Notes: generated from the letters alone by a model not told the origin. A stretch of DNA of 64,000 nucleotides from Deinococcales bacterium (GCA_031414595.1 JANNVX010000031.1:1-64000); one strand, 5' to 3'. Numbered from the stretch's first letter, positions 1 through 64,000 are shown. Made by a program: numbers and translations.

Positions 1-137
1 CCATATCACTTGGCGACGAGTTTTTTCTTTGGCATCTTTGCACTGTTTGTAGTGTTTCTCGAGTTCTTCAGTCGTATGGTGGGCGGTTAGAGGTGTGCCT
101 AATCTTGACATTCCTTATTATCTACCTAAAGTTGGTA
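1..137 (-). mobile_element. IS630-like element left end with transposase N-terminus (ATG at 111, runs off the window)
   Basis: The minus strand from 111 reads MSRLGTPLTAHHTTEELEKHYKQCKDAKEKTRRQVIW, resembling IS630-family HTH N-termini. It begins at a TA (136-137) where the DUF1905 gene breaks. Confidence 0.65.
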
Positions 138-252
138 TCACGAGTTTAGAGGCTGCTTTTAAGTCAGCAGATTGCTCGAGTGGGACAGTCACAAAATACC
201 AAGGGGCTGGACCGCGCCAATACCAAATAACGCCGTTAAACTCGAGTTCCAT
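118..252 (-). pseudogene. DUF1905-family protein truncated by IS insertion
   Basis: MELEFNGVIWYWRGPAPWYFVTVP...ASKLV, then an abrupt switch to IS sequence. TATACT lies 7 nt before the ATG. Confidence 0.7.
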
Positions 253-301
253 AGAGGGCAGTATATCGGTGATTCTCGAGTTTAATGGGGTTTCATATTT
301 T

Positions 302-1387
302 CTATCTTTTTCCGTCTTTGTCTTGCCAGCGCAAAAAGGTTGGTATTTCGTATATATCTGGGGAACTGTTTGGGCTTGGAAGACTTGGGAATGGTTGACT
401 GAGCGGTGATTGCTGTCCGTTACGAATAAAGTTGCCCAGTCCGGGGGTGTCGTTAAAGCCACTGGCAACCACAGTCACACGGATTTCATCACCAGCGTGT
501 TCATCGTAAGCCACACCAAACAGCACTTCGACGGTATTTTGGTCAAAGCCGGTAGCTTCGGTGATGCGATTGACAATTTCGTAGGTATCCGAAAGGGTGA
601 CTTTTTCTTCGTGTCCGGTGATGTTGATTAAAATTTTCTTTGCGCCTTCAATAGAGCGCTCGAGCAAAGGCGAGTGAATCGCGCTTTTGACCGCATCTTC
701 GATTAAGTTGTCACCGTGTCCAGCCCCAATCCCCATCAAGACACTACCCGCGTCTTTAAGTTGGTTTTTGACATCGGCAAAATCAACGTTAATCATTCCG
801 CTCGAGTTGATCACATCCGAGATTCCCTTGATGCCGTAATACAGCACTCGGTCTGCCAGTAAAAATGCGTCTTTTAAGGATACTTTTTTGTCGGTGGCTT
901 GGATCAATTTCTCGTTGTTGACAATAATCATGCCATCCACGCGCTCTTGGAGTTTTTTAATTCCGTCTTCGGCAACCCGTTGACGTTTTGGTCCTTCAAA
1001 GCGAAATGGTCGGGTGACAATCGCAATCGTTAAAATTCCCATTTCACGGGCGATTTCGGCAACCACAGGAGCGCTGCCCGTACCTGTACCGCCGCCCATA
1101 CCTGCCGTGATAAACACAAGGTCGGTATCAGAAAGGTGTTCTTTGATCGTTTCGCGGTCTTCTTCGGCGGCTTTCTCGCCCACTTCTGGGTCTGCCCCAG
1201 CCCCTAATCCACGGGTGATTCTGTCGCCCATTTGAATGCGGTATTCGGCATGGCTTTTACTCAGCACTTGGGCATCGGTGTTGCCTGCGATAAATTCCAC
1301 GCCATCTAAACCATTTTCGATCATGCGATTAACAGCGTTATTACCAGCGCCACCTAAGCCGATCACCCGAATCTTTGCTCCTAACAC
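302..1387 (-). CDS. ftsZ: Cell division protein FtsZ
   Basis: [12 protein letters not shown] and GMGGGTGTG tubulin signature; GTG start at 1387 after GGAGG. Confidence 0.99.
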
Positions 1388-1457
1388 GTTACGCCTCCCG
1401 AGCGCGAGGCTGCCCAAGCGCGGGTTGAAATACTATCAAAAAATTGGGGTATAAGCA

Positions 1458-2834
1458 TTAAAACCAGTCCTTAAAAAATCCGCGAATTCTGTCCATTAAA
1501 CCCGGTTTATCGTTGGCAATTGCCCGTTCGCGTTCTTGGACGGTCTCGAGTGTGCCTTCGGCGCGTTCTAAACGCGGTTGCGGTAGTGTCTCGAGTCTTG
1601 GGGTTTCAATGGCGGGGCTATAGACTTCTTCGGGTTGTGAATCCACCACATCGGCGCGGATTGCACCGCTTCCAGAGCCATGTTCCATGCCGTACCAGAT
1701 AAGTCCAACCACGGTTGCATGGGTCGGTGTGCCGATTAAACTGTTTAAGCCACCCGCCACAGGGCGAGGCTTACCGACTCGGACAGGTAACTTAAAGCGT
1801 TCACGGGCGAGTTCAACCACGCCGCGCATTAAAGCAGTACCGCCCGTTAGAACCACACCGCCAGCAATCAGTTCAACTGGTCCTAGAACACTGTCTATTT
1901 CGGCTCGAGCCAGATTAAAAATCTCGGCAACTCGAGGTTTGATGATGCGGCTTAAATCGTATGCCGAGACACTTGGCACAACCCCGTTCTGGGTGAGTTC
2001 TAAATTCAGTTCAGGGTCGGCAAGTTCTGGAACAGCACTGCCATATTTCTTTTTGACCCGTTCGGCTTCATCGGCTGGGATTTTCAGGATTTGGGCGAGG
2101 TCTTGGGTCACATGCTCGCCACCAAGGGGCAAGACAGCACTATGGGCAAGGTTTCCGCGCCGGAAGACCGCCACATCGGTTGTGCCGCCGCCAATGTCAA
2201 TCAGTACCGTGGTGGTATCCTCTTCAACTGGCTCGAGGGTACTCAGACCACTGGCATAGCCTTGTAAGACCAAACCATTGACATGCACCCCAGCTTGAGA
2301 AACACAATGGCGTAAATTCGCCAAAGGTCCCTGAGCGCCGGTCACAATATGAACATCCACCTCGAGCCTAACGCCGTGCATTCCCAAGGGGTTCTTGATG
2401 CCTTCTTGACCATCTACCGTGTACTCTTGCGGCAGCACATGAATCACTTCGCGGTTTGGGTCAAGCGGTACGGCTCGAGCGTTTTCGACCGCCCTGTCAA
2501 TATCAGAACGGGCAATTTGTTGTCCGCGCCGAATTGCCGCTAAACCATGACTGGTCAGCGCACTTAAATGCCCACCCGCCACACCAACATAGACATCGCG
2601 CACTGAGGCACCCGCCACCCGTTCGGCAGCGCTAATGGCTGCCCGAATGCTGGCAGTGGCTCGCTCGAGATTGACCACCACACCGCGTTTTAAGCCCTCG
2701 GAAGGGACTGTGCCTTCGCCAATAATATCAAGGATATTGTCGGGTCCAACCTCGCCGATGACCGTGGTGATTTTGGTGCTACCAATGTCCAAACCAACAA
2801 TTAAACGACTCTCTGTAATTCTCGAGGCAGTCAT
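1458..2834 (-). CDS. ftsA: Cell division protein FtsA
   Basis: VGLDIGSTKI and DIGGGTTD actin-like motifs; upstream of ftsZ. Confidence 0.98.
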   Translation of the reverse strand: MTASRITESRLIVGLDIGSTKITTVIGEVGPDNILDIIGEGTVPSEGLKRGVVVNLERATASIRAAISAAERVAGASVRDVYVGVAGGHLSALTSHGLAAIRRGQQIARSDIDRAVENARAVPLDPNREVIHVLPQEYTVDGQEGIKNPLGMHGVRLEVDVHIVTGAQGPLANLRHCVSQAGVHVNGLVLQGYASGLSTLEPVEEDTTTVLIDIGGGTTDVAVFRRGNLAHSAVLPLGGEHVTQDLAQILKIPADEAERVKKKYGSAVPELADPELNLELTQNGVVPSVSAYDLSRIIKPRVAEIFNLARAEIDSVLGPVELIAGGVVLTGGTALMRGVVELARERFKLPVRVGKPRPVAGGLNSLIGTPTHATVVGLIWYGMEHGSGSGAIRADVVDSQPEEVYSPAIETPRLETLPQPRLERAEGTLETVQERERAIANDKPGLMDRIRGFFKDWF

Positions 2835-3478
2835 TGAACACTCACCCCCCATGAATAGACATTGACCCGTTTGGTTTGAGATGACCGAGTTTGCGATACC
2901 AATTGGGATTGCATAACCATCATTCTGACACTTTCCCCATATTTCAGCAAACTGTCATGGGTTTGCGCCCAAATTTCGGCATTCTGGAAAACCACCAAGA
3001 AGCCATTAGAGTCAAATTTGACCCGAACCGCCCCCATTTCCTTGGCGGTTCGAGCCACCAATAACGCCTGTGCAAACTGCTTTTGGCTTTCACCCTCGAG
3101 AACCAGTTTGGCTGTGCCAGTTGGTAAAATCACACCATCTTCGGCAATCACATCGCTTTTACCTAGGCGCTTCCAAACCGCTAAAGGCAGACGTTCGACA
3201 AGTTGAATCGTGACTGTCCCCGGAAAAGTCTTGACCAATTTGGCTTGCTGCACCCAAGGCTCACGCTCGAGCGCCGCCGCCCGAACCTTAGAAACCCACA
3301 ACCAAGGATTCCCTCGGGCGACCCCCGCCATTTGTGCCACATCTTTAGGATTTAAGTTCTTTGTCCCAGAAACCAACACTTTATCCACAGGAAAAAAGAA
3401 CCAACTCGAGGCAAAAAGCACCGCTGTAATCACAAAAAAAGCAAAAAAAGAACGCCAAACCGTTTGTCTAAATGTCAT
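2831..3478 (-). CDS. ftsQ: Cell division protein FtsQ/DivIB (POTRA)
   Basis: TM helix then POTRA (PWVQQAKLVKTFPGTVTIQLVER). ATG 3478 follows GGAGG; the longer ORF-track start only translates a repeat. Confidence 0.9.
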   Translation of the reverse strand: MTFRQTVWRSFFAFFVITAVLFASSWFFFPVDKVLVSGTKNLNPKDVAQMAGVARGNPWLWVSKVRAAALEREPWVQQAKLVKTFPGTVTIQLVERLPLAVWKRLGKSDVIAEDGVILPTGTAKLVLEGESQKQFAQALLVARTAKEMGAVRVKFDSNGFLVVFQNAEIWAQTHDSLLKYGESVRMMVMQSQLVSQTRSSQTKRVNVYSWGVSVQ

Positions 3479-3489
3479 GCTGCCTCCCA

Positions 3490-3569
3490 GCAAGGGCAAA
3501 AGGCGAAAGGCAAAGGGCAAAGGTAAAAATCCTTTCGCCTTTCGCCTTTCGCCTTTTGCCCTTTGCCTT
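3490..3569. repeat. Heptamer (AAGGCRA-like) tandem repeat hairpin
   Basis: A run of aaggcga/agggcaa units followed by the inverse run ctttcgc/ctttgcc. Confidence 0.9.
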
Positions 3570-3572
3570 CCT

Positions 3573-4496
3573 TCATACCTTCCCCCAAATTTCAACTTCG
3601 CGTTCTAATGGCACTTCAAGCGCCGACTCGATTTGCTCGAGAAGCGCGATTATATCCTTAGCCGTTGCTCCACCAAGATTGACTATAAAGTTACCATGTT
3701 CTAAGGAGACCATTGCTTGACCAATCTGAGAGCCTTTTAGCCCAGCTTGGTCTACCAAGCGCCCAGCGCTCTGTCCGACAGGGTTTTTCCAAGCACAACC
3801 AAAGGTGCGCCAATGCGGTTGTCCTTTACGGGCTTCATCGGCTAAGTTCATGCGTTCTTGGACAATTTCTGGACTGGTTTTCTCGAGTTTAAGTTTGACT
3901 CTGGTAACGATACCCACACCATTTTGACCTTGCGGCAGGCTCGAGTTGCGGTAGACAAAACCCAGTTCTTGTGGCTTGTAGACTTTGGCGATTCCATCCG
4001 TGACCACCTCGACAGCCACCAGTGTATCCGCCATTTCGCCAAAGCGCGTACCAGCATTCATTCGCACTGCACCACCGATTTGGGCTGGAACACCCCACAG
4101 CCCCTCGAGTCCAGACAGCCCACGGCGTTGCAACTCGCGTACAAAACCCGGAATTGGCTTGGCTGCCCCGACCCAACCTGTAAAAATATGGGTTTCGGTC
4201 TCGAGTTCTGCCGATAAATCAGCTTGACTAAATTCTCCACCAAGACGAATTACCCGTTCGGAAACACCTGCATCAGAAACAATTAAGTTACTGCCGCCGC
4301 CCAAAATTTTATAGGGCGCTTTAGTCGCTTCACACAGCGCAGGTAAATCATGACAAACCCAAAGTTGGGCTTGTCCACCAACACCAAGCGTCGTGAACTG
4401 GGCTAAATGCACCATCCGAGGCGCACCTTTGGTAGTTGGGTTTGGCATGACCGTACAGGCTTCAAGCACTGGCATGACCGCACAGGTTTCAGGCAT
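3573..4496 (-). CDS. murB: UDP-N-acetylmuramate dehydrogenase
   Basis: LGGGSNL, GGAVRMNAG, HGNFIVNLGGATAKD, LEREV. Confidence 0.96.
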   Translation of the reverse strand: MPETCAVMPVLEACTVMPNPTTKGAPRMVHLAQFTTLGVGGQAQLWVCHDLPALCEATKAPYKILGGGSNLIVSDAGVSERVIRLGGEFSQADLSAELETETHIFTGWVGAAKPIPGFVRELQRRGLSGLEGLWGVPAQIGGAVRMNAGTRFGEMADTLVAVEVVTDGIAKVYKPQELGFVYRNSSLPQGQNGVGIVTRVKLKLEKTSPEIVQERMNLADEARKGQPHWRTFGCAWKNPVGQSAGRLVDQAGLKGSQIGQAMVSLEHGNFIVNLGGATAKDIIALLEQIESALEVPLEREVEIWGKV

Positions 4497-5865
4497 GATT
4501 CACCTGTTCATTCAGCACTTCCCGCAAGACCTTGGTCACATCACCAGCGCCCATTGAAACAATTAAATCGCCAGCTTGGGCAGTTTGCCGCACATGGGTT
4601 TTGACGGCGCTTAAATTAGGGTAATAGGACACAGCCTTAAAACCATCACGCTGCATTTTCTCGAGAATACGCTGTGAGCTTACCCCCTGCATACTGGCTT
4701 CACCCGCGCTGTAAATATCGAGCATTAATACTTCGTTGGCATCTTGCAGCACTTGGGCATAACGCTCCCAATCCCTAGCGGTGCGAATCACCCGATGCGG
4801 TTGAAAAATCACTCGGACACGCTTGCCATACGATAACGCACCATGAATTGCCGCACCAACCTTGGTTGGATTATGAGCATAATCATCCACCAACAAGGCT
4901 TCTTGGAATTCGCCCAGCACTTCCCAACGCCGCCCAGCCCCACGAAACCCAGCCAGCGCCACGGCAGCCGCATTCAAATCTAAGCCCTCGAGATGCGCCA
5001 CGGCTAAAGTCGCTACCGCATTGAGGACATTATGCGCCCCCGGAACGAGTAAATGCACATCCACCAACGGCAGACCATGCAGGGTAAACGTAAAAGTAGG
5101 CTGCCCACCCTCGAGTTTAAGGTTAGTCGCACGGTAATCTCCGTGTTTAATGCCATAAGAAACACCGTTCTCAAGACACCCAGCCAAAATTTGCTCAAGC
5201 GGCAACCAATCGGCGCAATACACCACTTTTTTAGCATTACGGGCAAATTCCCTGAACGCCAAATGTAAATCCTCAACACTGGCATGATAATTATTGCGAA
5301 CATCAGCTTCAGACAGCGCCACATGGTCATCTTCGATATTGGTGATAATCGCAATATCCGATGTAACCAAAGCAAAAAGTGGGTCAGATTCATCTATTTC
5401 GGCAATAAAATGCGCCCCAGAACCGACCTTGGCATTGCCGCCAATGGCTGCCACCTCACCACCGACCGCCGCCGTGGGATTGACCCCGCACCCCTCAAAC
5501 ACAGTTGCCACCATTGCACTGGTACTGGTCTTACCATGCGTTCCCGCTACCGAAATCCCACGTTTAAGGCGCATTAAATCCGCCAGTAATTCGATTCGGC
5601 GCAACACCACCTTACCTTGGTCTCGAGCAAACAAGACCTCGGGTTCTTGGGCATGAATCCCTGTACTTAAAACCACCACATCCACGTCCGTTGTGATATG
5701 TCCCACCGAATGCCCATGTGCCACCCGAATTCCAGCCGCCTCGAGTTCTCGGGTCTTATCAAAGACATTTTTATCGCACCCAGACACCAGATGCCCAAAC
5801 GACTGTAAAATCAGCGCCAAGCCACTCATGCCAATTCCGCCAATATCCATTAAGTGATAGTGCAT
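4489..5865 (-). CDS. murC: UDP-N-acetylmuramate--L-alanine ligase
   Basis: IGGIGMSGLA, AGTHGKTST, EIDESD, DDYAHNP, FQPHR. Confidence 0.98.
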   Translation of the reverse strand: MHYHLMDIGGIGMSGLALILQSFGHLVSGCDKNVFDKTRELEAAGIRVAHGHSVGHITTDVDVVVLSTGIHAQEPEVLFARDQGKVVLRRIELLADLMRLKRGISVAGTHGKTSTSAMVATVFEGCGVNPTAAVGGEVAAIGGNAKVGSGAHFIAEIDESDPLFALVTSDIAIITNIEDDHVALSEADVRNNYHASVEDLHLAFREFARNAKKVVYCADWLPLEQILAGCLENGVSYGIKHGDYRATNLKLEGGQPTFTFTLHGLPLVDVHLLVPGAHNVLNAVATLAVAHLEGLDLNAAAVALAGFRGAGRRWEVLGEFQEALLVDDYAHNPTKVGAAIHGALSYGKRVRVIFQPHRVIRTARDWERYAQVLQDANEVLMLDIYSAGEASMQGVSSQRILEKMQRDGFKAVSYYPNLSAVKTHVRQTAQAGDLIVSMGAGDVTKVLREVLNEQVNHA

Positions 5866-5882
5866 GGCACTCCTTCGGAGTG

Positions 5883-5985
5883 AGGCGACAAGGCAAAGGC
5901 GAAAGCGCGAGTAGCCCGCGAGGTGCTATCCCACGAGCAAGAAGGCGAAAGGTTAAACCTTTTGCCCTTTGCCTGTCGCCTTTCA
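5883..5985. repeat. Heptamer repeat hairpin carrying a nested 39-nt insert (5906-5944)
   Basis: aaggcaa/aggcgaa run and its inverse run; the insert matches 27394-27432 and 12013-12051. Confidence 0.85.
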
Positions 5986-5992
5986 ACTTCTC

Positions 5993-7069
5993 TCATAATC
6001 CCTCGAGTACCGCGTCAGCAAGGCGTTTGGCTGCCCCTGCTGGTGTGTTTTTCCGCACGATTTCCCGCCAATTAGCAAGGCGTGTCGTGTCAAAGCATGA
6101 CAGCATACCGCTAACCAGCTTGCCGTCAAGACCCGAGACCTCTTGTTCTAAGTCTGACTCGAGGATACACAAACCCGCGCCTCTGAGTTCTAAACTTTGG
6201 GCATTTTTGACTTGATGGTTTTCGGCACTGCTTGGCAAGGGAATCAGTGCCAAAGGCACACCATGAAAGGCAGCATCGGCAATGGTACTCATACCGGCTC
6301 GGGTGATGGCAAAGTCTATGGCAGAAAAGGCAGCGCTACCATCCACAAATTCGGCACAGTGATACCACGGCAAGTGTTTAACCTTTGGCATGACTTCCTC
6401 GAGTCTGCCACGCCCAGTTTGATGCAGCACTTGGGCGTTTTTTTCAGTTAAAACACGCTCGAGAAGCGGTGGCAAAAGCGCGTTCAAACGCATACTGCCT
6501 TGCGAACCACCCATGACTAGCACTGTAAATTTTTCTGGCTCGAGACCAAAAATACTTCTTGCCTCGAGACGCGGTACGCTTTTTTCACGCACTGGCATTC
6601 CCACCACAACCGTCTTGACGTTCTTTAAGTGTGTCTGTGTGGCGGCATCGGCTAAAGCAATAATTCTGGCTCGAGACGCAAAAAAACGTGTCACCAAACC
6701 TGGAAAAGCATTGGCTTCGTGCATCGCTAACGGTATACCCGATAAAAACGCTCCCGCCATACCTTGCAGACTGGCAAAACCACCAAAACCAACCACTAGA
6801 TTTGGCTTAAAGCGTCGTACCACCGTAAAAGCATCAAAGACACCAAGCAGGGCATTAAACAGTGCTATAGGATTTGGATTTGAACGATCCAATTTACCAG
6901 AACGGACTCCAAAAAAAGTCAGATTCTCCTCGGTCGCCAGACGTTCTTCCATGCCGCCAGAAGCCCCAATTAAAGCACTTTCTATGCCTCGAGATTTCAG
7001 TTCTCGAGACAGGGCAATGGCTGGGAAAATATGTCCAGCCGTCCCACCCGCCGAGAGTAAAATTTTCAT
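5993..7069 (-). CDS. murG: Lipid I N-acetylglucosamine transferase
   Basis: GGTAGHIFPA, GGSQGS, HQTG, TRAGMST, HQVKNA. Confidence 0.98.
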   Translation of the reverse strand: MKILLSAGGTAGHIFPAIALSRELKSRGIESALIGASGGMEERLATEENLTFFGVRSGKLDRSNPNPIALFNALLGVFDAFTVVRRFKPNLVVGFGGFASLQGMAGAFLSGIPLAMHEANAFPGLVTRFFASRARIIALADAATQTHLKNVKTVVVGMPVREKSVPRLEARSIFGLEPEKFTVLVMGGSQGSMRLNALLPPLLERVLTEKNAQVLHQTGRGRLEEVMPKVKHLPWYHCAEFVDGSAAFSAIDFAITRAGMSTIADAAFHGVPLALIPLPSSAENHQVKNAQSLELRGAGLCILESDLEQEVSGLDGKLVSGMLSCFDTTRLANWREIVRKNTPAGAAKRLADAVLEGL

Positions 7070-7101
7070 GTAGCCCCTCGGAAGTCTGCTAGACTCTGAG
7101 A

Positions 7102-7329
7102 ATGCAATGGAATGTGACCGAACAGAGCGACCTGAATACCATGCTTGAAGCGATTAAACGCGGTGAGAACGTCATTCTGACCCAAAACGGCGAGGCTGTT
7201 GCCCAAGTGACCGCCTTGCCAAAACCCCAAAATACGATTCGGCTTGGCGTTTTCCCAAAAGAAATCAAATCGGACTTGCTTGAACCAACTGACCAAGAAA
7301 TGATTGATTCGTTTTACGGGAATAATTGA
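7102..7329 (+). CDS. Phd/YefM-family antitoxin
   Basis: MLEAIKRGENVILTQNGEAVAQV Phd-like pattern; leaderless (TAGACT 7090-7095); abuts the PIN gene. Confidence 0.85.
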   Translation: MQWNVTEQSDLNTMLEAIKRGENVILTQNGEAVAQVTALPKPQNTIRLGVFPKEIKSDLLEPTDQEMIDSFYGNN

Positions 7330-7725
7330 ATGCGTGTTTTGCTTGACACCCACACACTCGTTTGGGCAGTGATGCAGCCGAAACAATTGCCCATTAAAGT
7401 TCATCAAATTCTGAACGATACCAAGACCCAAAGTTTTTTTAGTTCGGTCAGTTTGTACGAAATCAGCCTGAAATACCATGCTGGAAAATGGGATGATGTG
7501 GCGGAACTTGCAATTGAAAAAAATAGCCTTGAAATACTCCGTGATTTCGGTGCGATTGAACTGCCAGTCTACTCGAGCCACACACGATTGGCTGGAGCTT
7601 TCCCTAGCAGCCACAAAGACCCTTTTGACCGTTTGCTGGCAGCCCAAGCCATGCTCGAGCAAATGACCTTGTTGAGTGCCGACCCCTTGATGGATGGCTT
7701 TGGGGTACAAAGGATTTGGAATTAA
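7330..7725 (+). CDS. vapC: PIN-domain VapC toxin
   Basis: LLDTHTLVW, SLYEI, HKDPFDRLLAAQA, LLSAD. Confidence 0.95.
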   Translation: MRVLLDTHTLVWAVMQPKQLPIKVHQILNDTKTQSFFSSVSLYEISLKYHAGKWDDVAELAIEKNSLEILRDFGAIELPVYSSHTRLAGAFPSSHKDPFDRLLAAQAMLEQMTLLSADPLMDGFGVQRIWN

Positions 7726-7727
7726 AG

Positions 7728-8870
7728 TCATTTAATCCCACTCTCGAGTAGAGCAATCCGAGGTTCTGGACGTGGCACGGCGCGTTTTTCGTATTTAACC
7801 AGCAGCGCATGAGCCGAGTGCATCCAGCCCATCACAATGGCGCAAGCAATCATGCTCGAGCCACCATCGGAGACAAAAGGTAAGGTCATACCCGTGTTTG
7901 GAAAACGCCCAACCGTCACGGCTAAGTTAATCATCGCTTGGGCAACCAATAAAAGCATTGCCCCACCACACAAAATACTGGCGGCATTGCGTTCGTCTGC
8001 GTCTATATGAACTGCCTTTGAGAGACGGTGCATCAGGTCTAGTCCAACCAATAAAATACAGGCAAAAGCAGCAAATATGGTGGTGATACCGATTAAACCA
8101 AGACTGTGCGCTACGGTAGAGGACACAAAATCATTGGTTTGGGCAAAGAGCTTAATTTTATCTTGGGCAGGACCTCGCCCCGGAATTCCACCGCGCTGAA
8201 TGATGCAACGCGCCAATTCAACTTGGGTTTTGTCACGCTTGGCACACATATCATCTGAACGGGTCACGGAGGTAAAGCCCTCTAACCGGTTTCCCACGTA
8301 CTTATTTTGTTGTAAGTAATAACCAATGAGAGGCGAAGCCATCAGTGCCGCCGTTATCGCAATACTGAGGATTCGTCCGATGGGGGCATTGGCAAGAAAC
8401 ATCACCCCTAAACCAAGTGCAAAAGTAAACACACCCGCCGAAGTGCTGGGCGCGAGTAAAATCAGGACACTGGTTGCCCCGAGTGCCAAAGCTGGAACCC
8501 AAAGCGCATAACGAGTTCCGCGCCGCGCAAAAAATGAAGCAAAATAGGCAATCAAAGCCACTTTTGCAAATTCAGAAGGTTGAAACTGAAAACCAAAGAC
8601 TGGAATCCAACGCCGTACCCCATTGATTTCACGTCCAAACAATAAAACCGCCACCAACGCCACCAAGCACAAGACCCAAGCGTACTTGCCAAGTTGTACC
8701 GAAGCCCCCGCCCGCATCTGCGAAACAACCAGCGTGACCGTAAAACCAATGGCAATAAACACCAAGCTCTCGGGGATATCGTTGACTGAAGCCGTCGCCA
8801 TGGCGAGTAAACCCAAGGCGAACAAGACCATCTGGGCGGAGAGGAGTAAAGGATTTAAGGGTTTTAGCAT
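7728..8870 (-). CDS. ftsW: SEDS protein FtsW
   Basis: NGVRRWI, FQPSEFAK, PNTGMTLPFVSDGGSS; multi-TM; dcw position. Confidence 0.93.
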   Translation of the reverse strand: MLKPLNPLLLSAQMVLFALGLLAMATASVNDIPESLVFIAIGFTVTLVVSQMRAGASVQLGKYAWVLCLVALVAVLLFGREINGVRRWIPVFGFQFQPSEFAKVALIAYFASFFARRGTRYALWVPALALGATSVLILLAPSTSAGVFTFALGLGVMFLANAPIGRILSIAITAALMASPLIGYYLQQNKYVGNRLEGFTSVTRSDDMCAKRDKTQVELARCIIQRGGIPGRGPAQDKIKLFAQTNDFVSSTVAHSLGLIGITTIFAAFACILLVGLDLMHRLSKAVHIDADERNAASILCGGAMLLLVAQAMINLAVTVGRFPNTGMTLPFVSDGGSSMIACAIVMGWMHSAHALLVKYEKRAVPRPEPRIALLESGIK

Positions 8871-8907
8871 GGGAGAACCTCGGGCGAAAAGCGACAAGGC
8901 AAGGGGG

Positions 8908-10209
8908 TCATGAAGTTGCCTCCTCGAGTGATTTGACGGCATCCCGAAAGGCTTGCCCTCGAGCTTTGTAGTTTTTGAATAAATCAAAACTTGTACCTAA
9001 CGGAGCTAAGACCACACTACCGCCTTTGGCTGCCTCGAGTCCGAGTTGTACGGCTTTTGGCATGACAGAATCTGTGGTTAGGGCAGTTAAATCAAGAATT
9101 CTGATGCCCGTGTGCTGCAAGGCTTTGGCGTACTCGAGACCAGATTCTCCAAAGGCAATCAAGACCGCTACTTTTTTCATTAACGGCTCGAGTTTTGGCA
9201 GTTCTGATTTATGTTCTTCTGGGGTGAGTTTATCGCGTCCACCGACAATCCAAGCAATTGGCGCTGGGGCATTCTCGAGGGCGCTTTGGACGGCTAAGAC
9301 CCGAGTAGCAATACTATCTTCGATAAAGCGCGTGTTTTGGATGGTCGCAATCGTTTCAAAACGCCCCCGTACACCCGGAAACTCGAGCAGCGCTGTTTGT
9401 AATTTTTCTAAATTTGCTGTCCGACCATGACGCTTTAAGTACGCCAGCACCGCCGCTACAGCCATACGTACATTTTGCGGATGCACGGTATTTGGAATTT
9501 CTTCTAAGGCGAGCAGTTGGCTCTCCTCTATTCGCACCGCCCCAGTTTCGGCAACTCGAGCAATCTGGGCTGGGGTTTTGGTTTCTAGGGCTAAGGATTC
9601 TGGAAGCACCAAGGTATCCGCCTCGGTTAAATTCTTGGCGATTTGCCATTTGGCAGCCTTGTATGCTTGTACCGAACCGTGGTCACGCACATGGTCTACT
9701 CCGATATTGGTGATGACTGCCACGTCTGGGCGGTAGGTGTGAATCCGTTCCAACTGAAAACTAGAAAGTTCCACCACGCAGACTTCGGCATCCAAGACCT
9801 CGAGAAGCGGCGGGTCAAAATTTCCACCAACTTGCGCCTTAAAACCCTGTGACTCAAGCAAATGGGCAATTAACAAAGTGGTGCTGCCTTTACCTGCTGT
9901 ACCAGTAATGCCAATACTTGAGAATGTGGCGGTTTGAAACGCCAATTCAACCTCGCCCCAGACCGGAATACCTACTGCCAGCGCCGTCTGCATATGCGGA
10001 TGACGCATCATCACCCCGGGCGCAGCAATCACCAAATCTATGCCCGTTAAATCAAACGACTCGAGTCTCGAGAACCCCAGTTCTAGGGCTTCGGGCGCTC
10101 CAAAAGGGTTTGACGAATCATCAAACCAAACTCCAGACCAACCGAGTTTAGCAAGGTGTTTAATCACACTCGAGCCACTGCGTCCGAGACCAAAAACAAG
10201 ACAATTCAT
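8908..10209 (-). CDS. murD: UDP-MurNAc-L-Ala--D-Glu ligase
   Basis: FGLGRSG, GITGTAGKGSTT, VELSSFQL, DSIAT, SFDLFKNYKARG. Confidence 0.97.
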   Translation of the reverse strand: MNCLVFGLGRSGSSVIKHLAKLGWSGVWFDDSSNPFGAPEALELGFSRLESFDLTGIDLVIAAPGVMMRHPHMQTALAVGIPVWGEVELAFQTATFSSIGITGTAGKGSTTLLIAHLLESQGFKAQVGGNFDPPLLEVLDAEVCVVELSSFQLERIHTYRPDVAVITNIGVDHVRDHGSVQAYKAAKWQIAKNLTEADTLVLPESLALETKTPAQIARVAETGAVRIEESQLLALEEIPNTVHPQNVRMAVAAVLAYLKRHGRTANLEKLQTALLEFPGVRGRFETIATIQNTRFIEDSIATRVLAVQSALENAPAPIAWIVGGRDKLTPEEHKSELPKLEPLMKKVAVLIAFGESGLEYAKALQHTGIRILDLTALTTDSVMPKAVQLGLEAAKGGSVVLAPLGTSFDLFKNYKARGQAFRDAVKSLEEATS

Positions 10210-11138
10210 GCTTTACCGCCAGTCATGATGCTCCAAGCAAGCATGGTAGCCACAGCAGTGATGGCTAAAAACCGAATCGTGACTTTGGTTTCTGCCCAAC
10301 CGAGTTTTTCAAAATGATGATGAATCGGAGTCATTAGAAAAAGGCGTTTGTCCACCCCATGAAATCGTTCATTGTAGCGCTTAGAAAGGACTTGCAGCAC
10401 TACACTGACAATCGCCATCACAGGGAAAATCGCAGCAATCGGTAGAACCCATGTCCAACCTTGGGTGATATAAACCCCAGCCACAATCCCACCAAGGGCA
10501 TGAGAACCCGCGTCGCCCATGAAAATCTGGGCTTTTGGGGCGTTAAACCATAAGTAGCCAAGCAAAGCCGCAATCGTGAAACCCGCCATTGGCGAAGAAA
10601 CCACCAATGGAATCAAAATAATCGCCACTGTACCCGCGCAAAGTCCATCCAAGCCATCAGAGAAATTGACTGCATTGGCAGTACCAACCGCCACAAAGCA
10701 GTAAAAAGCAGCATCCAACCAAAAACTACCCAGTAAAGAAATTTCACCCGCCACAACATAGGCAAAAATACTCGAGACAAGAATCTGGGCTGGGAATTTA
10801 ATTCGCGCTGGTAAATCACCTCGAGTCGCCGCGCCAAGCATCCGCGCCCGAACAATACCGATGTCGTCCCATGCGCCAATTAAGTACATTCCAAAGGATA
10901 AACCCAGCACTGCCCAGCCTTTGGTGTCGGACATGCCCGTCAAACCAATCAAAACCAGCCAGACTAAAAAGATAGTCAGGGTGAACGGGATTCCGCCCAT
11001 CGTCGGTGTGCCGTCCTTAATCAGATGGGTGGCGGGTCCATCGCGGCGTACCGTCTGCCCCCAACCGCGTTCCTTAGCAAAGCGCAGAAAAATCCCCACA
11101 GCAAACCATGAGATTAAAGCAGTCAGCACAAACCTCAC
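10206..11138 (-). CDS. mraY: Phospho-MurNAc-pentapeptide transferase
   Basis: KDGTPTMGG, NAVNFSDGLDGL, FMGDAGS, PIHHHFE. Confidence 0.98.
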   Translation of the reverse strand: MRFVLTALISWFAVGIFLRFAKERGWGQTVRRDGPATHLIKDGTPTMGGIPFTLTIFLVWLVLIGLTGMSDTKGWAVLGLSFGMYLIGAWDDIGIVRARMLGAATRGDLPARIKFPAQILVSSIFAYVVAGEISLLGSFWLDAAFYCFVAVGTANAVNFSDGLDGLCAGTVAIILIPLVVSSPMAGFTIAALLGYLWFNAPKAQIFMGDAGSHALGGIVAGVYITQGWTWVLPIAAIFPVMAIVSVVLQVLSKRYNERFHGVDKRLFLMTPIHHHFEKLGWAETKVTIRFLAITAVATMLAWSIMTGGKA

Positions 11139-12217
11139 CGCGTCACCTCACAAGCTCGAGTTAAAAGTGGGGCAAAGGTTCGGGCATCAAAAAACATCAC
11201 ACTCGAGCCAATTGCCACTGCCAGTGTATCACCACCAACTGCAATTTTTGAACCAGCGCTTGGCAAAGAAATAGTACGAAAAGCATTCAGGTCATTACGG
11301 CTAATTCGTACCTCAGATTTCTCGAGAACAAAGGTATAGTCGGCATTTCGCACCGCCGTACCTTTGACCGCCACAAACGAATTATTTTCTGACAGCAATG
11401 AATACTGGGCAGAATCAAGCTCTTTAACTTGAGTGGTTTGCCCATTTTGCAATACAAACACTTCTTTACCAACCAAAAAATAGGTGCTGTTTGGCAATTC
11501 AAGCACATCTTGTGGCGGAATAGAAAAACGGGTCACTCGAGAACCTAAGAAATTAAAAACATCACCCTCTGAAGTTAAAATGTGCCGTGCCGATAACCGT
11601 GTGGGTTGCCCCGAAACAGCCACACTTTTTGGCAGACCCACAGCTGTTTGCACCAAACCGGCTCGAGGTAAAGCAAACCACCATGTGTTATCCAGCCACA
11701 CTGCACTGCTGACCCGAGTTGGCGCGGACAACCATTCATGCCCAGACTGCCCACGAATCGCGGCTCGAGAGAAAAGTGCTACTGATGTGGCATTCTGCGC
11801 CACACAAACCGTGTCGCCATTGGGATTGACCACCAAACTGACCACAGCACTCGAAGCCGCAACTGCACCAGAACTTGGGGTGACTCGAGTCGGAGCGCAA
11901 GCTGTCAGAAATACAATAGGTAAAAGCCAAAGCAACAAAGATTTTCGTAGAGGCGCAACGAAAATCTTAAGGAATTGTCCGAAAATAAAATCTATGAATC
12001 GTTGGGCGAGGCTATCTTGACCATAAACGCGCACCTTACGGGCATGGTCGCATGCCTCGCCCCTACGAAAAAAATCTCGTGCTAGACCGTAGGGGTTAGG
12101 CATGCCTAACCCTCTTGCAGTCAATGATGATTCAAATCCAAATTGGGATGTTATTTCAGGACAGTTCCGATGGGTGAATTGGTGGGCAAAGCCCACCCTA
12201 CGCTCAAAGCCGTTCAC
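11135..12217 (-). CDS. Hypothetical lipoprotein (beta-rich); start uncertain, 5' part reads in frame through a REP and a MITE
   Basis: Lipobox-like RKSLLLWLLPIVFLTA-C. GTG at 12217 has GGAGG and overlaps the murF end; the frame is open through 11971-12168. Confidence 0.6.
   Translation of the reverse strand: MNGFERRVGFAHQFTHRNCPEITSQFGFESSLTARGLGMPNPYGLARDFFRRGEACDHARKVRVYGQDSLAQRFIDFIFGQFLKIFVAPLRKSLLLWLLPIVFLTACAPTRVTPSSGAVAASSAVVSLVVNPNGDTVCVAQNATSVALFSRAAIRGQSGHEWLSAPTRVSSAVWLDNTWWFALPRAGLVQTAVGLPKSVAVSGQPTRLSARHILTSEGDVFNFLGSRVTRFSIPPQDVLELPNSTYFLVGKEVFVLQNGQTTQVKELDSAQYSLLSENNSFVAVKGTAVRNADYTFVLEKSEVRISRNDLNAFRTISLPSAGSKIAVGGDTLAVAIGSSVMFFDARTFAPLLTRACEVTR
11971..12168. mobile_element. 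MITE-like element (198 bp) with terminal inverted repeats and an internal GTAG-REP doublet
   Basis: Ends GGAATTGTCCGAAAATAA ... TTATTTCAGGACAGTTCC. Inside are an interrupted GGGCGAGGC/ATGCCTCGCCCCTAC and GTAGGGGTTAGGCATGCCTAACCC. Confidence 0.8.
12181..12201 (-). repeat. Solo GTAG-family REP
   Basis: GTAG-GGTGGGC-TTT-GCCCACC hairpin on the minus strand just after the murF stop. Confidence 0.8.
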
Positions 12218-13475
12218 GCAGCACCTCCACAATTTGCTCGAGTTGCACAAATCTCGAGCCTTTGACAAGGATGGTGTCGCCATTTTTAATATCGGGCAAT
12301 ACTCGGGTTTTGGCTTCTTCGGTTGTGGCATACCAAAGTGCGTCTGTACCATTATCAAGCGCAGCTTGGGCAAGCGCGTCGCCGTGTTCGCCAATGGCAA
12401 TCACCAATTGGGCGTGTTTAGCAGCCGTGATTCCGATTTCGCTGTGGTACTGGCGGCTGTGTGTGCCGAGTTCGCGCATATGTCCAAGAATCGCCACTTT
12501 GCGTCCAGTAAACCGTGCCAGTGTCTCGAGACTAGCGGTCACAGACAATGGATTGGCGTTGTAAGCATCGTCTATCAAAGTAATTTGTCCACGTTCGATG
12601 CGGAGTCTTCCCCCTGGAATTTGGCTGTTCTCGAGTCGGGTTTTGGCGGTCTCGAGCGGGATGTTGTAGCGCTGGGCTAGGGCAAGTGCCAAGACTGCAC
12701 TTTCGGCAATTTGGGTACTTGGGGTCTCGAGGGTAATCTGCTGCCCGTGATAGAGAAAGCTAACGGTTTCGGCAGTGGCGTGTAGGTTCGTGGCGTGGTG
12801 GGTGCAGGTCTCGAGAAAACCATAACTCGGGGTGTTCGGGTAACGGTGGGCGGTGTTGCCCGCGACCATGCTATGAGGAGCTTCTAGGATGCGTCCTTTT
12901 TCAAAAGCAACGGTGTCTACATCGCCAAAAAATTCGGTGTGGGCAGCCCCGACCGAGGTAATAATGCCGATGTTTGGCGCAATCAGTGCCATCAGTTCAT
13001 CCATTTCACCGATGTGGTCTATGCCCATTTCAATCACATGGGTGCTACCCGCTTTTACGTTTGAAAGTAAATAACAGGCTAAGTAATTGAGGGTATTGAG
13101 GTTTCCGGGCGTACATGGCACATCCAAAGCACTCGAGACAAGGCTTTTAGCGGTGGTTTTTCCGGCTGAACCCGTGATGCCGATTAACTCGGCTTGGGTG
13201 GTGTCGCGGTGCAGTCTTGCCCAGTGGCGGAGCGCCATAACTGCGTCTGGAACACGCACCGCCCTTGGCACATCCAGATTGGTCAGGATAAACGGTGCGC
13301 CAGCTTCAATTGCCGCCTCAATAAAATCGTTGCCATGCCGCGTTGCGCCTTGCAGTGCCGCGAACGCCGTGTGTTCGTTGCACTCCGAAGTCATAAAAGT
13401 GATGCCCTTAGCGGCTCGAGCATCACTGTCGATAGTGGCTTGGAGTTGTTGGGCATAAAGAAAAGGGTCAATCAT
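12204..13475 (-). CDS. murF: UDP-MurNAc-tripeptide--D-Ala-D-Ala ligase
   Basis: GITGSAGKTTAK, GNLN, EMG, DDAYNANP, LVKGSR. Confidence 0.97.
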   Translation of the reverse strand: MIDPFLYAQQLQATIDSDARAAKGITFMTSECNEHTAFAALQGATRHGNDFIEAAIEAGAPFILTNLDVPRAVRVPDAVMALRHWARLHRDTTQAELIGITGSAGKTTAKSLVSSALDVPCTPGNLNTLNYLACYLLSNVKAGSTHVIEMGIDHIGEMDELMALIAPNIGIITSVGAAHTEFFGDVDTVAFEKGRILEAPHSMVAGNTAHRYPNTPSYGFLETCTHHATNLHATAETVSFLYHGQQITLETPSTQIAESAVLALALAQRYNIPLETAKTRLENSQIPGGRLRIERGQITLIDDAYNANPLSVTASLETLARFTGRKVAILGHMRELGTHSRQYHSEIGITAAKHAQLVIAIGEHGDALAQAALDNGTDALWYATTEEAKTRVLPDIKNGDTILVKGSRFVQLEQIVEVLRERL

Positions 13476-13524
13476 TGTAACCTCGAGCATACAGGTAGTA
13501 AGATGTGTAAATCACTCATTTGTC

Positions 13525-14973
13525 CTACTTTTTGGCACACGGCACAGGGGCAATCCCGTACCGTGCGGCGGTCTCGAGAACAATTTGCCGAAAAACGGGC
13601 GCAGCCCCAAGCGAACCATGAATGTCGTTTTTTGGGGCGTACAACTGCACGGCAATTGTCACTTTTGGCTTGTCCACAGGGAAAAACCCGGCAAAGAGCG
13701 CGTGGTAACGACTCGAGGATTTTTTGCCGTTGTACCAAGTTTCCGAAGTCCCCGTTTTACCACCAACACAGTAATTGGGAACTCGAGCGCGAGGCACACC
13801 TTCATTGACCGTGTACTCGAGCATTTCACGGGTGGTGCGGGCAGCGCTTTCGGAAATGACCCTGCGTGGTTCGGGGATGTCTTGTCCTTCAAATAATTTT
13901 GGCGTAATCAGTTTGCCATCATTGACCAGCACACTAAACGAAGTCGCCAGTTGCAGGGCAGTGGTGGTGAAACCCTGTCCAAAACTATGGGTCGCAAAGT
14001 CTCGAGGTCGCCAATCTTGCCAGTCAGATAAATCATTGCGTTCTAAACTCGGGTCGTTTTTCCACGTTTTTGCGCCAAAACCAAATTTGACCAAATACTC
14101 ATGGAGTTTTTGCGCCCCCAACTGGTCGGCAAAAAAGGAAATTCCAACGTTACTCGAGTAACGCAAAACTTCTTTTAAGGTTAAATCCGAAGGATGCTTA
14201 ATCGCGTCACGCACAGGTGGCGCATTGCGGTACTGACGCTGCATTGGCGCGTACATTGGCGTGTCTGGTGTGGCTCGACCTTCATTGACCAGCATACTGG
14301 CAACCAAGGCTTTAATCGTGCTACCGGGGTCAAAGGTATCGCGGAAGGCACGGTTTTTCCATAGTCCTTCGCGTCCATCTTGCCAATTGGCAGCATCAAA
14401 ACTCGGGGCATTGGCAACCGCCAGTAAACGGTTGGTTTTGGCTTCGAGAATCACCACTGTGCCACCTTCTGAACCAGTGGCAAGCATCGCGTTTTCTAAA
14501 GTCGCTTCGGCGCTGGCTTGCATGGTTGGGTCAAGCGTCAGGATTAAATCTTGACCACTGGCAAGCCAATCATTCTCAAATTTTTCCACGCCGTATAAGC
14601 CTTTGTTAAATACACCGTTGTCATCTTTGCCAACAAACCCAAGCACCCCAGAAGCCAAACGCCCTTGTGGGTATTTACGATTCTGATTAACCGTCTTGCC
14701 TGTGCTTTCAGATAAGGTCACAAATCCTTGTTCGCCACGCAACAAAACCCGTCCGCGTTGCACATCTTTACTGACCACAGGAGCATACGGTAGCCCCAAG
14801 GACAAACCCGTAAACTCGAGCCAAAGCCTGACCATCACCAGTGCCAAGACCCCACCAATCAAAGCAAAACGCCACGGTTGACTTGGGGTTTCCAAAGGCA
14901 TGACCTCGACAGGTGTAAAGACTGTCTCGAGGGGTGTGGGAATGTGTTGGGTTTTGGTTTCGACTTGGGGCAT
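13525..14973 (-). CDS. ftsI: Class B penicillin-binding protein (FtsI-like)
   Basis: PGSTIK (SxxK), YSSN (SxN), KTGT; N-terminal TM. Confidence 0.93.
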   Translation of the reverse strand: MPQVETKTQHIPTPLETVFTPVEVMPLETPSQPWRFALIGGVLALVMVRLWLEFTGLSLGLPYAPVVSKDVQRGRVLLRGEQGFVTLSESTGKTVNQNRKYPQGRLASGVLGFVGKDDNGVFNKGLYGVEKFENDWLASGQDLILTLDPTMQASAEATLENAMLATGSEGGTVVILEAKTNRLLAVANAPSFDAANWQDGREGLWKNRAFRDTFDPGSTIKALVASMLVNEGRATPDTPMYAPMQRQYRNAPPVRDAIKHPSDLTLKEVLRYSSNVGISFFADQLGAQKLHEYLVKFGFGAKTWKNDPSLERNDLSDWQDWRPRDFATHSFGQGFTTTALQLATSFSVLVNDGKLITPKLFEGQDIPEPRRVISESAARTTREMLEYTVNEGVPRARVPNYCVGGKTGTSETWYNGKKSSSRYHALFAGFFPVDKPKVTIAVQLYAPKNDIHGSLGAAPVFRQIVLETAARYGIAPVPCAKK

Positions 14974-17554: not shown

Positions 17555-17629
17555 GGTGATCCCAACGAGACTTGAACTCGTGTCTGCGCCTTGAGAGGGC
17601 ACCGTCCTAGACCGCTAGACGATGGGACC
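17554..17629 (-). tRNA. tRNA-Glu (CTC)
   Basis: GGTCCCATCGTCTAGCGG...CTCTCAA...GTTCAAGT...GGGATCACCA; 76 nt, encoded CCA. Confidence 0.95.
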
Positions 17630-17689
17630 ATCGTGGGTTCGCGCCGGTACTGGCGCGGGCTTGCTCGAGGCGGACGTTCTCGAGGGCTT

Positions 17690-17763
17690 TGGCTGGGGAA
17701 CGTGGATTTGAACCACGATAAACAGATCCAGAAACTGTTGTCCTGCCATTAGACGATTCCCCA
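17690..17763 (-). tRNA. tRNA-Gln (CTG)
   Basis: TGGGGAATCGTCTAATGG...TTCTGGA...GGTTCAAATCC...CCCCAGCCA; 74 nt. Confidence 0.95.
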
Positions 17764-19016: not shown

Positions 19017-19120
19017 CAAAATTTTAATGGATTTCTGCAAGGGGGTGAAAATAAAAACAAAGCCAGATTCGTGAATTTTTAATCGTCCACACAACTCTTT
19101 AGGTAATTTCAGGAGACCAT

Positions 19121-27100: not shown

Positions 27101-27145
27101 GGCTAAAACTGTTTTGGTAATCCAGCTTGCTTCAAAACACCATTA

Positions 27146-27537: not shown

Positions 27538-27548
27538 GAGCTTACGTT

Positions 27549-62969: not shown

Positions 62970-63150
62970 GATTTTGAATCTCGAGCCTCTAAGTCAAAGC
63001 GATTCTACTCGAGATTAGCCCCTAACGCCTACCATTGTGTCTTCGCCAAATTTAGGCTACTATTCGGCACTCCCAAAAGTTGAATCTGCTCGAGAAATTT
63101 CTCAAAACGGGGCGAAAACCGATTGTGCTATACTCTGGTCAGGAGGTTTT

Positions 63151-63339
63151 ATGGCTAAACCAATTTCACCAACACCAGTTCTAACCGGACAAGATGCCCA
63201 AGCTGTTATCCAGCAACTCGAGCGTGGTACACCCATGACTCCAGAACGACAAGCCTTTCTGAAACAAGCCCAAGCCAATTTCAAACGACACCAAACTGCT
63301 TTTGCTCGAGAAGGTATCGCTTCTGCACCTCGAACTTGA
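63151..63339 (+). CDS. Putative antitoxin upstream of a GNAT toxin
   Basis: AGGAGG RBS, MAKPISPTPVLTGQDA; overlaps the GNAT gene. Confidence 0.7.
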   Translation: MAKPISPTPVLTGQDAQAVIQQLERGTPMTPERQAFLKQAQANFKRHQTAFAREGIASAPRT

Positions 63340-63849
63340 CCAAATTACCATCCTTCCTTTACCCCAAGGTTTTGACTTTGAGGATTTTGATTGTGGCGAA
63401 CCAGACTACAACGACTATCTGCGAGATGGCACGGCGTACAGAGACGAAGCGGCGGGTGTAGCAAGGGTTTGTACGAAGACAAACTGATTGGGTACTTTGC
63501 AGTTCTGAACGACTCGATTCAACTCGAGACCAAAGAACGCCCAAAAACCATTGCTTACTCGAGTGTACCCGCTCTGAAAATTGGGCGTTTGGCAACAAGC
63601 GTAGAAGTTCAAGGACAAGGCATCGGAAAATATCTGGTGCAGGTCGTGGTTGGTTTAGCCATAGCCCAATCAAAGGTTGTCGGATGCCGATTTGTGACTT
63701 TGGATGCTTTACCTGGGCGAGAAGATTTTTACTTGAAACAGGGATTTGTTCGCAATAAACTTGTCCACAAAAACTTTGAGAAACTACGCAACAAACCATT
63801 AGAAAACACCAGTATGCGCTTGGATATTTTGATTGAAGAAAAAAGTTGA
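63302..63849 (+). pseudogene. GNAT acetyltransferase toxin, frameshifted near 63467
   Basis: FDCGEPDYNDYL is in one frame; LIGYF, PALKIGRLA, QGQGIG, GCRFVTLDA and FYLKQGF are in another. Confidence 0.8.
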
Positions 63850-63934
63850 AAATTTTACTCGAGCAGCGCCAAGCCCAAATTGGACAGATAGAAAACCACT
63901 GGAAAAAAAGCCGATGAACGCCTAAACTGATTCA

Positions 63935-64000
63935 ATGACCCTAACCTTACACCTCCCAGAAAAACTCGAACAGAAACTTCGAGCAGTTGCACAACAACAC
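63935..64000 (+). CDS. Partial RHH-like antitoxin (runs off the window)
   Basis: MTLTLHLPEKLEQKLRAVAQQH; TAAACT 6 nt upstream. Confidence 0.6.
   Translation, partial: MTLTLHLPEKLEQKLRAVAQQH

Follow-up and report, generated by a model that had tools for sequence, protein, structure and literature searches.

CTCGAG is a highly iterated palindrome of one Deinococcales family

Here, we report that CTCGAG is a highly iterated palindrome of one family of the Deinococcales that parallels, in a different phylum and at higher density, the cyanobacterial highly iterated palindrome HIP1 (GCGATCGC). The word was analysed in a 64,000-base stretch of DNA (hereafter, the window), located at the start of contig C31 (bases 1 to 64,000) of the source genome G000 (4,488,778 bases, or 4.49 Mb; 120 contigs; 47.2% G+C), in this genome as a whole, and in its relatives. 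An earlier note on the window had described CTCGAG as HIP1-like in a non-cyanobacterium, and our findings bear this out: the palindrome shows a 24-fold excess, occurs in every reading frame as well as in spacers, and is conserved among related genomes. The note had also placed the DNA in the Deinococcota; consistently, the closest public matches of the MurC protein encoded in the window are all from Deinococcales. We are highly confident that the word CTCGAG is real and that it is actively maintained as a unit, and our best reading is that a weak, genome-wide fixation bias for the whole word holds it at ∼5 copies per kb. A full-text literature search, with subscription journals mostly outside its scope, found no published report of a CTCGAG excess, and neither "Deinococc" nor "CTCGAG" occurs in Elhai 2015 (PMC4390886).

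Abundance of CTCGAG and its independence from coding

The window contains 362 copies of CTCGAG (5.66 per kb), which are dispersed throughout its genes and spacers. Dinucleotide-preserving shuffles of the window (n = 100) gave a mean of 8.19 copies (standard deviation 2.49, maximum 16), and 362 was reached in none of them. Of the 362 sites, 300 are in called open reading frames (ORFs; 5.6 per kb) and 62 are outside (6.0 per kb); within ORFs, 194 are read as CTC-GAG, 50 as xxC-TCG-AGx, and 56 as xCT-CGA-Gxx. The reversed word GAGCTC is absent from the window. Genome-wide, G000 carries 23,235 copies, corresponding to 5.18 per kb (5,176 per Mb) or about one per 190 bases, which is 23.9 times the number expected from base composition. 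CTCGAG is the top hexamer of the genome and is followed by words that overlap it and then by TTTTTG (11,129 copies vs 46,470 for CTCGAG, both strands counted). Under a maximal-order Markov model, the observed/expected ratio (O/E) is 1.16; however, this value is not informative, as the flanking pentamers are themselves abundant on account of CTCGAG. The counts given in the earlier note, 15 sites in bases 1 to 3000 and about 12 in the 1.3-kb murD gene, are exact in both cases, and its estimate of an excess of 20-fold or more agrees with the 23.9-fold excess in the genome and with the 362 sites vs 8.2 in shuffles of the window.

Genes were called with a simple codon-score ORF caller, which gave 3,843 ORFs covering 87.7% of G000; because this caller is crude, the DNA counted as intergenic contains some missed small genes. 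The density of CTCGAG is 5.15 per kb within ORFs and 5.37 per kb in spacers, where the excess is 29-fold. All three frames are used, with 12,147 sites read as CTC-GAG, 3,910 as xxC-TCG-AGx, and 4,185 as xCT-CGA-Gxx. When synonymous codons were shuffled within each gene, keeping both the protein and its codon usage, 1,975 sites were left compared with 20,242 observed, a 10.2-fold excess (9.3-, 9.8-, and 15.9-fold in the three frames, respectively); shuffling of codon order left 909. The excess survives the codon-shuffled model that the earlier note had proposed as a check, and its presence in coding and intergenic DNA and in all frames, as stated there, is seen in the counts for both the window and the genome. 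The note had also named an absence from intergenic DNA and from frames other than Leu-Glu as evidence that would count against it; we found 5.37 sites per kb in spacers and enrichment in all three frames.

Among 20,298 Leu-Glu pairs encoded in G000, 12,147 are written CTCGAG, although GAA outnumbers GAG 2:1 and the leucine codons TTA, TTG, and CTG are each more common than CTC. No dipeptide is more strongly over-represented than Leu-Glu (O/E 2.22), Glu-Leu is at expectation (O/E 0.98), and by our arithmetic the surplus of Leu-Glu pairs over composition is roughly 11,000. CTCGAG overrides codon preference and alters proteins.

Within the window, the sites are distributed over the following features (coordinates are those of the window).
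58 to 2821: the 15 CTCGAG sites of bases 1-3000, in ftsZ, ftsA, and their flanks
302-1417, minus strand: ftsZ
1458-2852, minus strand: ftsA
4489-5865, minus strand: murC
8908-10209, minus strand: murD (TIGR01087, E 2.9e-95), with 12 CTCGAG sites
17630-17692: spacer of 63 bases between two tRNA genes, with two CTCGAG sites (17664 and 17679)
18960-20198: longest CTCGAG-free stretch of the window (distance between sites, 1,245 bases)
27095-27915: CTCGAG-free stretch containing a copy of a dispersed repeat (core at about 27141-27345)

The two tRNA genes that border the 63-base spacer (17557-17629 and 17693-17763) contain no CTCGAG. ftsZ, ftsA, murC, and murD are part of a division and cell-wall cluster at 302-14973 on the minus strand, in the order ftsZ, ftsA, an unnamed ORF, murB, murC, murG, an unnamed ORF, ftsW, murD, mraY, murF, and a gene for a PBP2-type transpeptidase. 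The stretch was recovered as contigs in sequencing runs of two studies, among them metagenomes of freshwater sediment and biofilm, and four runs of the second study represent related strains.

Distribution, maintenance, and spread of the word

The bases flanking CTCGAG in G000 are almost free of information, except that C is somewhat rare before the word and G after it. Counts per kb are close to Poisson (variance/mean 1.01), and the coefficient of variation of the gaps between sites is 0.99. Gaps of 30 bases or less make up 8.2% of all gaps vs a geometric expectation of 14.5%. The density is flat along genes and in all gene deciles, and spacer classes differ little (6.8 per kb in convergent, 5.6 in tandem, and 4.7 in divergent spacers). 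The equal density in genes and spacers had raised the idea of a "set-point" with regular spacing; the variance/mean ratio of 1.01 rules it out.

Maintenance of the sites was analysed by comparing G000 with the related genome G001, from which 60 of 820 contigs (252,889 bases) were used; after weaker alignments were dropped, 88 non-overlapping alignments (400 bases or longer, 85% identity or higher) provided 157,689 columns at 90.7% identity. In these alignments, 783 CTCGAG sites are common to both genomes, 110 are found only in G000, and 106 only in G001; the similar numbers of private sites argue that gains and losses balance. CTCGAG is retained in 88.3% of cases, compared with 63.0% for all hexamers, and ranks first among the 382 hexamers that had sufficient counts. 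The comparison of orthologs that the earlier note had suggested revealed retention above background. In spacers, 44 of 57 CTCGAG sites are kept, compared with 59.8% for other hexamers.

The same codons are kept more often inside the word than elsewhere, with 92 to 94% vs 64 to 67% for CTC and GAG. CTC is kept in 486/529 cases before GAG vs 254/399 elsewhere, GAG in 495/528 after CTC vs 338/503 elsewhere, TCG in 141/156 within CTCGAG vs 249/342 elsewhere, and CGA in 137/155 within CTCGAG vs 212/307 elsewhere. Changes toward the word follow the same pattern: CTT in one genome corresponds to CTC in the other in 9/17 cases before GAG vs 66/744 elsewhere, and GAA corresponds to GAG in 13/39 cases after CTC vs 112/2,028 elsewhere.

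Loss of the word to each of the nine classes of one-off neighbours is rarer than the genome-wide rate for the same base change; by our division, transitions occur at 0.14 to 0.42 times and transversions at 0 to 0.13 times this baseline. The commonest loss is the C-to-T change at the CpG, giving CTTGAG. The transition neighbours have O/E values of 1.07 to 1.23 in G000, and none is singled out (CTTGAG 1.07, TTCGAG 1.23), while transversion neighbours have O/E values of 0.17 to 0.69, some of them containing other avoided words. A drive acting on a single step would deplete one neighbour and leave the other positions open; the observed pattern is instead the one predicted by a potential on the whole word. 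These comparisons suggest that the force would act as a potential, i.e., by selection or biased conversion, rather than through one hypermutable step. From ln(24), we infer a strength of the bias of ∼3 in population-scaled units. Selection and biased conversion leave equal signatures, and sequence alone cannot separate them.

To delimit the spread of the excess, G000 was compared with 18 other genomes of its family (f1), together covering five genera. All 19 of 19 carry 4.3 to 7 CTCGAG per kb (counts divided by rounded genome sizes), while the reversed word GAGCTC is present in 0 to 568 copies. The other families of the order have 0.03 to 3 CTCGAG per kb; those that are rich in CTCGAG are also rich in GAGCTC, supporting a codon effect there. 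In G019, a genome of a sister family (400-kb sample of contig C4, 58% G+C), CTCGAG again leads the palindromic hexamers, here with a weaker, 5.2-fold excess. In this genome, 51% of the copies have G before and C after the word, and GCTCGAGC is 14.8-fold over-represented. The bias toward GCTCGAGC in G019 vs the bare CTCGAG in G000 argues for lineage-specific forms, as in HIP1. The G019 sample also contains the non-palindromic AAGAGGTC (reverse complement GACCTCTT) at 23-fold over-representation (256 copies in 400 kb), possibly as a variant of a ribosome-binding site or as another iterated word.

The excess extends to DNA outside the core of the host genome. G000 has three arrays of clustered regularly interspaced short palindromic repeats (CRISPR).
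C11:14152-16121: CRISPR array of 28 repeats
C82:70753-71697: CRISPR array of 14 repeats
C101:43-1634: CRISPR array of 21 repeats

Both repeat types of G000 contain CTCGAG. The array on C82 is preceded by genes for Cmr4, Cmr5, Cmr6, a CARF protein, a reverse transcriptase of the group-II-intron type, Cas1, and Cas2; this is a type III-B system, which may take up spacers from RNA. The 58 spacers (2,117 nucleotides) contain nine CTCGAG, compared with 9.5 at the host rate and 0.43 by chance (Poisson tail near 1e-9 by our arithmetic), at variable positions within the spacers; both GGCC and GAGCTC are absent from them, and none of the spacers has a match in G000 beyond the array to which it belongs. 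The C11 array (27 spacers) contributes eight of the nine sites and the C82-type set (31 spacers) the remaining one; therefore, the sample may reflect one class of element. Moreover, 59 kb of G001 without a homologue in G000 has 4.36 CTCGAG per kb. Whatever maintains CTCGAG acts on, or is copied by, the mobile and accessory DNA of the clade. Three spacers, one per array, gave no match each when used as exact patterns against viral contigs, the C11 array used as a DNA query against 20 relatives found no protospacer, and the prophage hallmarks TerL_ATPase and HK97 capsid had no match in G000. Viral contigs with three CTCGAG within ∼80 bases were also considered as a source of related phages. They include at least 127 loci, and nearly all of those listed are high-GC phages rich in GAGCTC or short tandem repeats. 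One such locus (L145; 2.8 kb, GC 0.45, five sites, neither GGCC nor GATC) is a possible member of the clade; it offers too little sequence to be of use.

DNA with at most 1.5 CTCGAG per kb amounts to only 95 kb in 16 stretches of G000. Five of these stretches were annotated, i.e., a low-GC polysaccharide cluster, an island with SIR2 and RHS genes, a transposase region, a block of unknowns, and slpA. Such word-poor stretches would be expected if acquired DNA fills in slowly and one gene is strongly constrained for separate reasons. Word-poor regions lie at C14:20501-40500 (L277) and C86:22958-27511 (L278). The word-poor island encodes a SIR2-domain protein, a TPR protein, and an RHS/PT-HINT protein of 3,646 residues, and the S-layer gene slpA (1,517 residues, GC 0.54) has seven sites in 4.5 kb.

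The dispersed repeat at 27141-27345 of the window (also delimited as 27090-27560) is ∼200 bases long, has GC-rich hairpin arms, and is likewise poor in the word. G000 has 73 copies of at least 70 nucleotides, totalling 12,245 nucleotides, with five CTCGAG (0.41 per kb). The copies are ∼90% identical to their consensus, and many are present in genomes of the same genus. We considered using this repeat to polarise gains of the word; however, its consensus has neither CTCGAG nor a one-off neighbour and, therefore, cannot show gains. A second dispersed repeat of ∼40 bases, at about 36906-36950 of the window, occurs 19 times in G000 and is found unchanged in several other genomes of this genus, and contigs from other samples join it to the repeat at 27.2 kb on the opposite strand.

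Possible sources of the bias

The excess of CTCGAG stands against a near-total avoidance of other palindromes. Of the 64 palindromic hexamers, 54 have an O/E of 0.5 or less in G000, 24 of 0.03 or less, and CTCGAG stands apart from all the others. TGCGCA has two copies, CGATCG three, GACGTC three, AGGCCT four, and GAGCTC six, and the other palindromes that contain TCGA are rare as well (TTCGAA 29, GTCGAC 26, ATCGAT 89). GGCC has 152 copies in G000 (O/E 0.011) and GATC an O/E of 0.14; the window has two GGCC and no AGGCCT or CGATCG. The avoided set varies between lineages: AGGCCT is present in 0 to 14 copies in genera g1 and g5, in 147 to 525 in g2 to g4, and in 784 to 2,916 in other families except for G019, which has its own set of near-absent palindromes. 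This pattern argues for an unusually heavy restriction pressure that differs by lineage, whereas the excess of CTCGAG is uniform across the family.

We suggest, with a probability of roughly one in three, that the source of the bias is a protein that recognises CTCGAG during DNA uptake, processing, or recombination. According to this model, recognition by the putative protein at these steps would lead word-bearing alleles to replace word-less ones. The result would be a "self-DNA watermark", as proposed for HIP1. The setting would be a lineage under heavy restriction pressure and with frequent DNA traffic, as the near-total avoidance of other palindromes suggests, and mobile DNA resident in the clade would carry CTCGAG for the same reason. 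A recombination or DNA-uptake signal, which the earlier note had also considered, would appear to fit the protection of the whole word better than methylation-directed repair does. An uptake-type role has been proposed for HIP1 in a 2026 paper (PMC13756078), which reports that the abundance of HIP1 tracks pilus and competence genes and that methylases stay below significance. Moreover, methylated HIP1 is reported to raise natural transformation (bioRxiv 10.1101/2024.09.10.611283).

Several points weigh against this model. The uptake protein ComEC (PF03772) is found in 18/19 family genomes; however, it is equally found in 12/12 genomes of the order that lack the excess and, therefore, does not discriminate. 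No reader protein for CTCGAG was found among the proteins considered here. The AddAB/RecB-type nuclease domain PDDEXK_1 is present in 11/19 family genomes (G000 and 10/18 others) and in none of the genomes of genera g3 (0/2, including the complete G013) and g4 (0/1), and such patchiness makes a classical Chi-type reader unlikely. Known uptake sequences are 9 to 12 bases long, non-palindromic, and about five times sparser. Lytic phages should escape a drive that acts on uptake, yet the CRISPR spacers are rich in CTCGAG. Selection for another function of each site would leave the same signature. Finally, the effect of HIP1 is methylation-dependent, and no methylase is shared by the six family genomes compared below.

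A bolder version of the uptake model, which we put forward as tentative, is that CTCGAG is a methylation-independent "self" watermark of the whole family: a predicted protein would read the bare palindrome, so that word-bearing DNA would be kept and word-poor DNA discarded. If true, the plasmids and phages of the clade had to copy the mark, and host proteins were rewritten with ∼11,000 extra Leu-Glu pairs. Highly iterated palindromes would then be a general, convergent device of kin recognition under heavy restriction rather than a cyanobacterial curiosity.

Among the alternatives, methylation-directed repair, which the earlier note had proposed, holds that a resident methylase marks CTCGAG or TCGA and that mismatch repair toward the methylated word fills the genome with it, as in Elhai's model of HIP1. 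Based on our data, this is unlikely. A search for methyltransferase genes, suggested in the earlier note, was successful in that ∼25 DNA-methylase genes are present in G000, of which two encode gamma-class adenine methylases with a TaqI-like (TaqI_C) specificity domain; these two, however, are found in only 3/19 and 4/19 family genomes. In an orthogroup comparison of G000 with G006, G009, G010, G011, and G013, which span four genera (G013 is complete and G010 is 91% complete), no orthogroup of the four Pfam methylase families N6_N4, C5, N6_Mtase, and D12 is common to all six genomes, a result that is limited by the incompleteness of metagenome-assembled genomes and by the possibility that unrelated enzymes have one and the same specificity, which is unreadable from sequence here. 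N6_N4 matches are missing from the complete genome G013 and C5 matches from G010, and the D12 enzymes of the compared genomes fall in orthogroups that G000 is without. MT-A70 is found in 1/18 other family genomes and not in G000, and Vsr in 0/19. The nuclease family of XhoI (PF04555) is likewise found in 0/19, while one Thermus-sized relative outside the family is positive. In the absence of an XhoI-type nuclease, Vsr, and a shared methylase from these genomes, methylation-directed repair is unsupported.

The pattern of change in the word bears on the same question. In favour of this alternative, the CpG cytosine is its most labile position, and cyanobacterial HIP1 is reported to co-occur with orphan methylases (PMC4390886). 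However, neither CTTGAG (1.07) nor TTCGAG (1.23) is depleted, and losses are suppressed at all six positions, including those outside the reach of any single-mismatch repair. As separate observations, the methylase complement is almost completely different between family genomes, and most of the methylase genes themselves have a CTCGAG density equal or close to that of the genome (three to nine sites per kb), which does not help to single out a long-resident enzyme.

It is also quite unlikely that CTCGAG marks sites of chromosome or nucleoid organisation that are bound by an abundant protein and kept by selection, which is how Xu et al. read HIP1. The sites are conserved as if under selection, the deficit of short gaps (8.2% vs 14.5%) could be the footprint of a protein, and conservation together with a periodicity of 10 to 90 kb has been reported for HIP1 (PMC5861425). 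In contrast, the counts in G000 are close to Poisson (variance/mean 1.01, gap coefficient of variation 0.99), and genes, spacers, gene deciles, and accessory DNA do not differ in density. Moreover, a role in the host chromosome does not predict that foreign DNA sampled by CRISPR carries the word at host density.

A palindromic Chi-like signal is very unlikely. In this alternative, a helicase-nuclease would degrade DNA until it meets CTCGAG, word-rich DNA would survive, and invaders would mimic the host. This would explain recognition of the whole word, its equal density throughout, and the word-rich DNA of invaders. However, PDDEXK_1 is restricted to 11/19 family genomes and absent from g3 (0/2) and g4 (0/1), and its only representative in G000 is one protein of 256 residues. 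Known Chi sites, moreover, are asymmetric and oriented with replication. A Chi-like role has been raised for HIP1 as well (bioRxiv 10.1101/2024.09.10.611283).

Lastly, we give next to no credence to the idea that codon, dipeptide, or base usage, or the avoidance of other words, produces CTCGAG as a side effect, with no force on CTCGAG itself: although 60% of the sites in genes encode Leu-Glu and the Thermus-sized relatives of families f4 and f5 have 1 to 3 CTCGAG per kb with similar counts of GAGCTC, in G000 GAGCTC has six copies vs 23,235 of CTCGAG, outside the word both CTC and GAG belong to the minority codons, and the 29-fold excess in spacers adds to the 10-fold excess after shuffling that preserves amino acids and codons, which, together with the dependence of codon retention on context, refutes this explanation.

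Significance and comparison with known systems

HIP1 is a thirty-year puzzle that has been studied in one phylum only, and CTCGAG provides a second, independent, and denser case, in which the word differs and a shared methylase is apparently missing. This makes it possible to ask whether protection of the whole word, lineage variants, presence in mobile DNA, and avoidance of other palindromes are general to such words or accidents of the cyanobacteria. CTCGAG further illustrates clearly how a force at the level of DNA rewrites proteins, with Leu-Glu as the top dipeptide and 60% of Leu-Glu pairs in non-preferred codons. In practical terms, CTCGAG is a sharp marker for binning the clade and for spotting recently acquired DNA, and it may open genetic tools for this uncultured clade if it acts as HIP1 reportedly does in transformation.

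CTCGAG is the site of XhoI and PaeR7I. However, a resident nuclease would deplete rather than enrich its site, and the corresponding family PF04555 has no member in the 19 genomes. Very short patch repair by Dcm and Vsr in E. coli (CCWGG vs CTWGG) resembles the present case in offering a repair-type account of an over-represented methylase target. The word bias in that system is well under 2-fold, whereas the excess of CTCGAG is 24-fold, Vsr is missing from all 19 family genomes, and the T-bearing neighbour CTTGAG is not depleted.

The DNA uptake sequences of Neisseriaceae and the uptake signal sequences of Pasteurellaceae are, like CTCGAG, short clade-specific words spread over genes and spacers, and ComEC is present in the CTCGAG family. 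These sequences are thought to accumulate by bias in DNA uptake and recombination. Unlike CTCGAG, they are 9 to 12 bases long and non-palindromic, and they occur about once per kb.

The closest counterpart is HIP1. CTCGAG is another word, two bases shorter, and in another phylum; it reaches ∼5,200 copies per Mb compared with 300 to 2,700 per Mb for HIP1 (PMC4390886), and it reshapes the proteome, with Leu-Glu at 2.2 times its expectation. The HIP1 core CGATCG has only three copies in the 4.49 Mb of G000, and the orphan methylases with which HIP1 co-occurs have no common counterpart in the six family genomes compared. Further features of the class are found for CTCGAG, i.e., an excess of at least about 15-fold, a density in the range of hundreds to thousands of copies per Mb, presence in all frames and in noncoding DNA, and conservation above background. 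As reported for HIP1 and the alternative cyanobacterial palindromes (PMC4390886; PMC5861425), it is a short palindrome with a tens-fold excess in all frames and in spacers. As in HIP1, it is conserved between relatives beyond background, and its form varies by lineage (bare CTCGAG vs GCTCGAGC). The likeness extends to CRISPR repeats, which contain the word both in G000 and, as reported, in the case of HIP1 (PMC6604393).

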